From Eledone cirrhosa (lineage: Eukaryota): a stretch of DNA of 64,000 bases. A program made the position numbers and the translations under genes. The stretch is from the NCBI GenBank assembly GCA_964016885.1, contig OZ024742.1, forward strand, positions 148,986,001 through 149,050,000, read 5' to 3'. Below the pieces are notes generated by a model. That model ran no database searches. It was not told the DNA's origin and saw only the letters and a list, made by a program, of their open reading frames with translations. This document shows, piece by piece, positions 8,017 through 8,239 of the stretch; the first letter of the stretch is position 1; every line of letters begins with the position of its first letter.

Positions 8017-8234
8017 ATAAAGAAAAAGAGATGAAATCGAAAATGCAACTTGAGTCTTATTTTTTTTTTAAATATATATATTTATTTGGTTCTGTGGTTT
8101 TACCACAGACCCTCCATCTCAACTCACCTTTTGAAAAGCAGAAGAACTGCGAAACCGGTAAAGGAACCAAATAAATATATATATTTAAAAAAAAAATAAG
8201 ACTCCAGTTGCATTTTCGATTTCATCTCTTTTTC

Positions 8235-8239
<5 letters not shown>
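8017..8239. repeat. 76-bp inverted repeat (8017-8092 / 8164-8239) with a 71-nt loop
   Basis: Arms are reverse complements at 75 of 76 positions by manual alignment (t8051 versus c8205). Confidence 0.95.
8127..8164 (+). ncRNA. Minimal type I hammerhead ribozyme, U3-A8 core variant, predicted cleavage after GUA at 8160
   Basis: CCTT-TTGAAAA-GCAG-aagaa-CTGC-GAAAC-cg-GTA-AAGG: perfect 4-bp stems I and II, G10.1-C11.1 pair, palindromic ACCGGT at stem III. Confidence 0.8.

Follow-up and report, generated by a model that had tools for sequence, protein, structure and literature searches.

A hammerhead ribozyme motif in an FNBP4 intron of the octopod Eledone cirrhosa very probably lies in head-to-head terminal repeats of a Penelope-like retrotransposon

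Hammerhead ribozyme motifs occur in the terminal repeats (pLTRs) of Penelope-like elements (PLEs). In Schistosoma mansoni, about 1,300 matches to a PLE hammerhead with a U3-A8 pair have been described (Cervera and de la Pena 2014, PMC4209133). These hammerheads have a small palindromic helix III, and the monomer is inactive and the dimer weak; the available text of that paper gives no in vivo evidence for their role. According to the accessible part of a review (PMC6765202), PLE hammerheads cleave as dimers (Lunse et al. 2016) and PLE transcription starts are placed in the upstream pLTR. An inverted copy, a one-sided tail and a bias for (TA)n targets are typical of PLEs (Craig 2021, PMC8557442, as excerpted). 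The protein of PAc, a Poseidon element of Anolis carolinensis, nicks both strands and initiates reverse transcription at two internal positions, which delimit the tail; hammerhead cleavage is not needed for insertion, and the protein assists the hammerhead (Frangieh et al. 2024, PMC11167929, main points as available). Metazoan non-LTR retrozymes, which are short, low in GC and carry a type I hammerhead, are probably also moved by PLE enzymes (Cervera and de la Pena 2020, PMC7229834, in the sections at hand). The results presented here concern a young family with approximately 16,000 insertion junctions, which makes the role of the PLE hammerhead testable by counting.

The window is a 64,000-nt stretch of E. 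cirrhosa DNA (contig OZ024742.1, positions 148,986,001 to 149,050,000, forward strand). It contains a unit of 286 bp (7954-8239) with TA runs on each side, which a sequence-only reading had put at about 290 bp. The unit sequence is the pLTR of an abundant, protein-coding PLE. It is very probable that the unit consists of short pLTR copies joined head to head in an intron of FNBP4, and that the hammerhead is a passenger, for which cutting is predicted solely in the dimer or in the presence of the element protein. The locus is ordinary: thousands of such stubs exist, and both its arrangement and its core variant have been published. If the possible record of cutting in vivo described below is real, the 16,000 young copies of the family, with their sharp 5' start and strictly one-sided tail, would allow promoter, twin priming and ribozyme use to be read straight from insertion junctions. 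The leads at the level of the family are an excess of starts at the cut, a sharp start at -72 and a predicted -1 frameshift between ORF1 and the reverse transcriptase (RT). Features are collected in Table 1; signed positions are counted from the predicted cut.

Table 1. Coordinates of the unit, its hammerhead motif, the host gene parts and the ORF1/RT overlaps of related copies (window positions unless a locus is named).
Feature	Position	Strand	Remarks
Left (TA)n target remnant	7945-7953		Sequence
One-sided 63-nt tail of the PLE, left arm only	7954-8016	-	In a full-length copy runs straight into ORF1
Left arm, pLTR in inverted orientation; spans +3 (counted from the predicted cut) to the 3' end that lacks the tail	8017-8092	-	
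Break point of the 56-nt left-arm gap, GGTTC/GGGTC microhomology; antisense hammerhead removed	8092-8093		Compared with fold-back L002
Left-arm 5'-end remnant and TTT inversion junction (mini-hairpin)	8093-8101	-	
Right arm, direct pLTR copy without tail	8102-8239	+	Begins at -59
Right (TA)n target remnant	8241-8269		Sequence
Minimal type I hammerhead motif, palindromic helix III	8127-8164	+	Predicted cut between 8160 and 8161; sequence, descriptor, predicted dimer fold
Helix I, CCUU/AAGG	8127-8130/8161-8164	+	4 bp, closes the motif ends
Core U3 U4 G5 A6 A7 A8 A9	8131-8137	+	U3-A8 instead of C3-G8
Helix II, GCAG/CUGC	8138-8150	+	4 bp, first pair G10.1-C11.1
G12-A14	8151-8153	+	
Palindrome ACCGGU, in helix III position	8154-8159	+	
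A17	8160	+	Directly 5' of the predicted cut
FNBP4 exon, 61 nt	8393-8453	+	GT..AG joint 8453 to 12026 in RNA-derived contig; translation and tblastn
Host FNBP4 intron	5811-8392	+	Acceptor AG 8391-8392; donor deduced from protein continuity and the GT that follows the WW-domain exon
ORF1/RT overlap	L077 near base 1480	-	
ORF1/RT overlap	L078:4583-4660		
ORF1/RT overlap	L080:2089-2165		
ORF1/RT overlap	L075:2283-2355		

The window motif has every hammerhead core position and sits in a long hairpin, as the sequence-only reading had described. Of the 76 positions in each arm (8017-8092 and 8164-8239), 75 are paired (99% complementary), and the hairpin has a predicted fold of -114.8 kcal/mol (z = -23.7), which none of 200 shuffles equalled in stability. 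The sole arm mismatch (8051/8205) is private to this copy at 8051, which deviates from nearly all aligned contigs. The mini-hairpin proposed at the inversion point is present, with 8 bp in the predicted fold (8091-8098/8102-8109). Closing of the motif ends by helix I, opening of helix II with G10.1-C11.1, a Watson-Crick 3-8 pair (here U3-A8) and a short palindromic helix III, which by prediction allows dimer folding, are all traits of the PLE minimal type I hammerhead. One further listed trait is absent, both from the window motif and from four related motifs (L169, L170, L176 and L199), indicating that it is not obligatory. Two motif copies are predicted to co-fold as a double hammerhead (-22.5 kcal/mol), and pairing of helix III in the monomer is close to zero. 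Display of the motif in the loop is only part of what had been suggested: the motif does lie in the loop, but its folding there is partial, with predicted pairing in the whole hairpin of 0.81 for helix II, 0.19 for helix I and approximately zero for helix III. The long duplex lifts predicted helix I pairing in the window copy from 0.02 to 0.19, and the 56-nt deletion may be of slight help to hammerhead folding in this model. G8164 serves as a base of both the long arm and helix I. Destruction of helix I by the long arm was considered and set aside as a minor effect, given a predicted 8092-8164 pairing of 0.09.

A hammerhead descriptor written for the present analysis gave two matches when both strands of the window were scanned. 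A scan of 7000-9500 with Rfam (E <= 1) found no hammerhead family; its 17 matches were all below the gathering score and were all microsatellite or hairpin look-alikes. The other descriptor match is a minimal motif of the C3-G8 type on the minus strand (8997-9031), antisense to FNBP4. It lies within a different high-copy repeat (approximately 8880-9090) in the next FNBP4 intron and has no match among the comparison loci.

The pLTR identity of the unit follows from its copies in the 3.0-Gb octopod assembly. For a 147-nt query, 40 of 91 candidates were scored, and at least 40 near-full matches with 93-100% identity were obtained. There are 11,539 occurrences of the exact 30-nt core, and rarity of the window motif is thus not supported; the U3-A8 variant, moreover, is among those already published (PMC4209133, available text). 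An exact 3' anchor occurs 15,913 times. Of 11 copies found through an upstream motif, six extend further 5', three of them by more than 1 kb and into a GIY-YIG frame. For the endonuclease (EN) frame there were 13,093 first-look candidates, and all 150 matches scored had 93-100% identity. The motif is present in all 10 long loci, usually 1.2-1.4 kb behind the stop codon of a frame encoding RT and GIY-YIG. The 791-aa frame of L075 matches PF00078 (RT) and, C-terminally, PF01541 (GIY-YIG) above cut-off, and translations reveal a DKG motif, a CX4CxxC linker and CCHH in the endonuclease. Locus L078 carries the repeat with its hammerhead at both ends of the coding region, before ORF1 and at the 3' end. 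The right arm in the window is 96% identical to the 3' end of the RT-EN copies L078 and L081 and has an exact match in L082. The description of the unit as a young inverted solo terminal repeat is supported.

These properties place the family close to described EN+ PLEs. Like Neptune and Nematis elements, as characterized in the available portion of PMC8557442, it has an RT with C-terminal GIY-YIG, a CX4CxxC linker, CCHH and DKG, together with pLTRs (here bearing a hammerhead at both ends), an inverted 5'-truncated copy, a one-sided tail and (TA)n targets. By the Craig 2021 definitions, as far as they are available, the parent would be an EN+ PLE of Neptune or Nematis type. The same definitions rule out the Hydra clade, which has no CCHH and has DKT, and the Naiad clade, which has an N-terminal EN and no hammerhead. 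In contrast to Neptune and Nematis, the tail is 63 nt rather than 30-40 nt, and a separate ORF1 of approximately 400 aa overlaps an RT frame that lacks a Met. The closest protein relatives of the RT-EN have 50-73% identity. With the Cercyon pLTRs of S. mansoni the window shares U3-A8, a short helix I, G10.1-C11.1 and the pLTR location, and in both families copies are mostly solo or form opposite-strand pairs 100-700 bp apart (PMC4209133, as excerpted). The window motif differs from Cercyon in its 4-bp helix II, the lack of an extra nucleotide between 9 and 10.1, and a helix III that is a 6-nt palindrome, as in the Drosophila, rotifer and shrimp variants; the present family, with its identical cores, is also very uniform. 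As in PAc, the hammerhead lies near the pLTR-ORF junction, two 3' boundaries define the tail, targets are AT-rich and most copies derive from uncut RNA. PAc differs in having C3-G8, no Cys linker, and both cut and tail inside the ORF (PMC11167929, available sections).

The hammerhead core is well conserved within the family and beyond. Retention of the core in other copies had been named as a check on the motif, and all 12 core positions are intact in 71 of the 81 family copies that span it; helix I has 3 bp in 44 of the 81. Relatives were represented by 75 metagenome loci from 459 candidates (26-48% identity), in which the descriptor gave 42 matches on the ORF strand, distributed over 27 loci, and none on the other strand. 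With a Watson-Crick filter there were 37 matches in the 75 loci, compared with 0-1 in each of five shuffles. When positions 3 and 8 were left free, the 26 distinct related motifs had C-G (14), U-A (10), A-U (1) or U-G (1). The Watson-Crick 3-8 pair is therefore kept in 25 of 26 distinct motifs, many of which come from one organism and are hence not independent, which supports the proposal that U3-A8 is a compensatory variant. The A3-U8 pair, in a related element (L237:3381), is a third Watson-Crick solution. A sister family in the same genome adjoins RT-EN fragments at 46-58% identity and also has U3-A8, with one compensatory pair change each in helices I and II. Its 20 fetched loci (L115-L134), retrieved with a query that carried C13, have C at core position 13. 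The sister family may represent a ribozyme that is dead or altered yet keeps spreading.

Fold-backs are common in the family. An inverted partner is present for 49 of 101 copies, and in all 15 fold-backs sampled one arm, and only one, carries the tail (p = 1e-5), an arrangement that fits two reverse-transcription events joined head to head. In these 15 head-to-head pairs the motif is present in both arms of eight, in one arm of five and in neither arm of two. The hammerhead helices of fold-back L002 have a predicted pairing near zero because the antisense copy covers them. Compared with L002, the left arm of the window copy lacks 56 nt at a microhomology, and display of the motif in the loop thus results from a deletion. 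A special meaning of the loop display is not supported; the display follows from the gap, and five of 15 fold-backs likewise keep the motif in a single arm. Nor does the start of an arm 4 nt after the cut, pointed out in the sequence-only reading, carry a signal. When the first 100 of the 158 matches were tallied by hand, break points in the interval from +8 to -22 were widely scattered, with five at the cut, six at +3 (the position in the window copy) and eight rows that could not be placed. Counts of 8, 8, 9 and 8 fell at -3, -6, -14 and -17, which are sites of short homology with the other arm. As the tally has no peak at +3, the left-arm end was rejected as a mark of cleavage.

The 5' boundaries of copies point to where the element RNA begins. 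In 101 anchor matches, taken in order along contig C1, 51 copies start within 13 nt of each other (-76 to -64, with a peak at approximately -72). Of the remainder, eight start at -63 to -8, seven at -7 to +4 and 25 further 5'; the 10 that start further 3' than +4 include some for which the alignment failed in the A tract. With a common 5' end, half of the copies measure approximately 200-270 nt. The peak near -72 is likely the 5' end of an RNA transcribed from a promoter within the repeat, as judged from genomic sequence. A plausible series of events is that element RNA would start approximately 72 nt upstream of the cut site, and the RT-endonuclease would nick both (TA)n strands. Reverse transcription would begin at two internal RNA sites, separated by 63 nt and located immediately upstream of ORF1, and priming on the 5' leader would yield cDNAs of 150-270 nt. 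A tailed and a tail-less cDNA of this kind would be joined through their 5' ends. Either in the course of insertion or later, the left arm would undergo a microhomology deletion, which would leave the remaining hammerhead in the loop. In pre-mRNA a lone copy is predicted to be almost inactive and would be spliced out. The motif is copied whole, which implies that most templates were uncut. Several points weigh against this account. The transcription start is taken from genomic 5' boundaries only, and twin priming is borrowed from the anole Poseidon element, whose tail lies inside the ORF and not just before it. The arms of the window copy start at -59, off the -72 peak, and the passenger status of the hammerhead is a prediction from modeled folds.

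The host gene was recognized from its exons. The one at 12026-12755 has 78% identity to an Octopus sinensis protein named formin-binding protein 4, and tblastn placed further FNBP4 exons at 5382-5816, 8390-8449 and 13784-13912. A contig of sequencing run X24 joins 8453 to 12026 across GT..AG, which fixes the small exon given in Table 1, and because of this spliced joint X24 was taken as RNA-derived. The unit is intronic and in sense orientation to the pre-mRNA, and the predicted cut lies 232 nt upstream of this spliced exon, confirming the distance of about 230 nt proposed earlier.

Three other readings of the unit were weighed against head-to-head pLTR copies. The sequence-only reading had offered a retrozyme, that is, a non-coding element multiplying through self-cleaved, circularized monomers. 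The unit is indeed short, AT-rich, non-coding, hammerhead-bearing and very numerous, and half of the copies share a 5' end. However, the sequence belongs to a coding element as its terminal repeat, copy boundaries fall at -72 and at the two tail sites rather than at the cut, and the motif is of the minimal PLE type and not the canonical retrozyme type (PMC7229834, available text). Retrozymes, as described there, have circular RNAs and occur as head-to-tail tandems with canonical hammerheads and no coding parent; the tandem arrangement, the canonical hammerhead and the missing coding parent do not fit the present elements. By eye, no same-strand neighbor within 1 kb was seen for any of the first 100 exact cores, and there is one head-to-tail pair among the first 100 anchors. 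It seems very improbable that the unit is a retrozyme. Equally improbable is that the window copy has been kept because its ribozyme or duplex regulates FNBP4 splicing, stability or editing. Cephalopods edit RNA heavily. Such a role would gain from this, from the sense orientation of the copy 153 nt from the acceptor and from its 76-bp duplex. Against it, chance alone would place 0.25 exact cores in every 64 kb, about half of all copies have an inverted partner, the young copy (one arm mismatch) bears no sign of long retention, and the flanking exon is spliced in the single RNA-derived run. Over 7900-12850, X24 and the DNA run X21 have 22 and 23 A>G places and 28 and 33 T>C places, respectively; other copies swamp any signal. 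Most remote of all is an assembly artefact. No listed contig spans the unique junction, which such an artefact would explain, yet thousands of fold-backs in the assembly are alike without being identical, have junctions that vary and carry a strictly one-sided tail. The arms also differ at 8051, and the unique flanking DNA is continuous in DNA runs. Through this family, thousands of 100-200-bp duplexes lie within introns of an animal group with heavy RNA editing.

A separate question, which can be added to the pLTR explanation, is whether the family hammerhead cuts in the animal, with a minority of copies being reverse transcribed from the 3' cleavage product and beginning at the cut. Among junctions between (TA)n and the element with the same first letters, 25 fall at the cut compared with seven at -20, one at -25 and eight at +4. 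Removal of duplicates and internal TA tracts (2, 1, 0 and 2 rows, respectively) leaves 23, 6, 1 and 6. The 23 of 36 exceed an equal share of one quarter (p = 9e-7), and 23 versus 6 gives p = 0.001, with three control positions counted. Loci L309 and L323 each have two starts at the cut, which would fit an RT that had restarted at an RNA end, and in a by-eye tally 17 of the first 43 loci have their start between -2 and +1. Differences affect 15 of 972 cells at the 12 core positions, compared with 61 of 1620 and 25 of 972 in the flanks, where counts include subfamily differences. Conversely, only one of the 101 unbiased copies starts at the cut, cut-site starters make up well under 1% of the family, and the fold-back tally described above has no peak at zero (five of 100, compared with 8-9 at each of the four sites of short homology). 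The letters before the cut are naturally TA and so match the target by microhomology, and slippage by one letter within the A run could yield the same junction; such a slip was seen in one of 81 intact copies. Pausing of the RT at the helices is possible, and the core change A13C in the sister family (20 fetched loci, query carrying A13C) also counts against cutting. In the anole no RNA ends were found at the cut (Frangieh et al. 2024, PMC11167929, available sections), whereas in the present family a few genomic copies do start there. On balance, cutting in vivo followed by reverse transcription of the cleavage product is a possibility held at somewhat less than even chances. It can be proposed only tentatively that the genome is a fossil record of PLE hammerhead cutting in vivo, in the form of a few dozen cut-site starts, four or more times the number at matched neighbors. 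The literature searched, mostly outside subscription journals, contained no report of genomic evidence for PLE hammerhead cleavage.

The coding region of the parent has features of its own. ORF1 overlaps the Met-less RT-EN frame in -1 at a U_UUU_UUA heptamer, and three of the four copies that include the overlap contain this heptamer; L075 is one T short. A related element (L165) has U_UUU_UUA after a 196-aa open frame, and four others (L211, L227, L228 and L231) have G_GGU_UUU after 370-400 aa. A -1 ribosomal frameshift from ORF1 to RT is predicted from these sequences. A frameshifted ORF1 is mentioned in the Fig. 1 legend of Craig 2021 (PMC8557442), and within the literature searched, some of it available in part, nothing beyond this legend was found on a PLE ORF1 frameshift. 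Five PLE RT-EN proteins (P0012, P0040, P0047, P0063 and P0109) are filed under bacterial symbiont genomes of bivalves and probably represent host DNA in symbiont assemblies; such mis-assignment of PLE proteins was noted by Craig 2021 in the available text.

The neighborhood of the unit is rich in other repeats. Two direct repeats of 193 nt (7000-7192 and 7740-7932) are 93% alike, SINE-like and end in (GAT)n. The next intron holds a broken LINE-type RT fragment (PF00078) on the plus strand (9265-10953), and pieces similar to it lie at 29171-29881, 34141-34611 and 45148-45795. Three frames on the minus strand at 43507-44858 are, from their motifs, presumably a broken mariner-type transposase. 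Positions 46961-53430 are approximately 6.4 kb of near-pure (TA/CA)n low-complexity sequence, with a GC content of 6% at 48001-52000.
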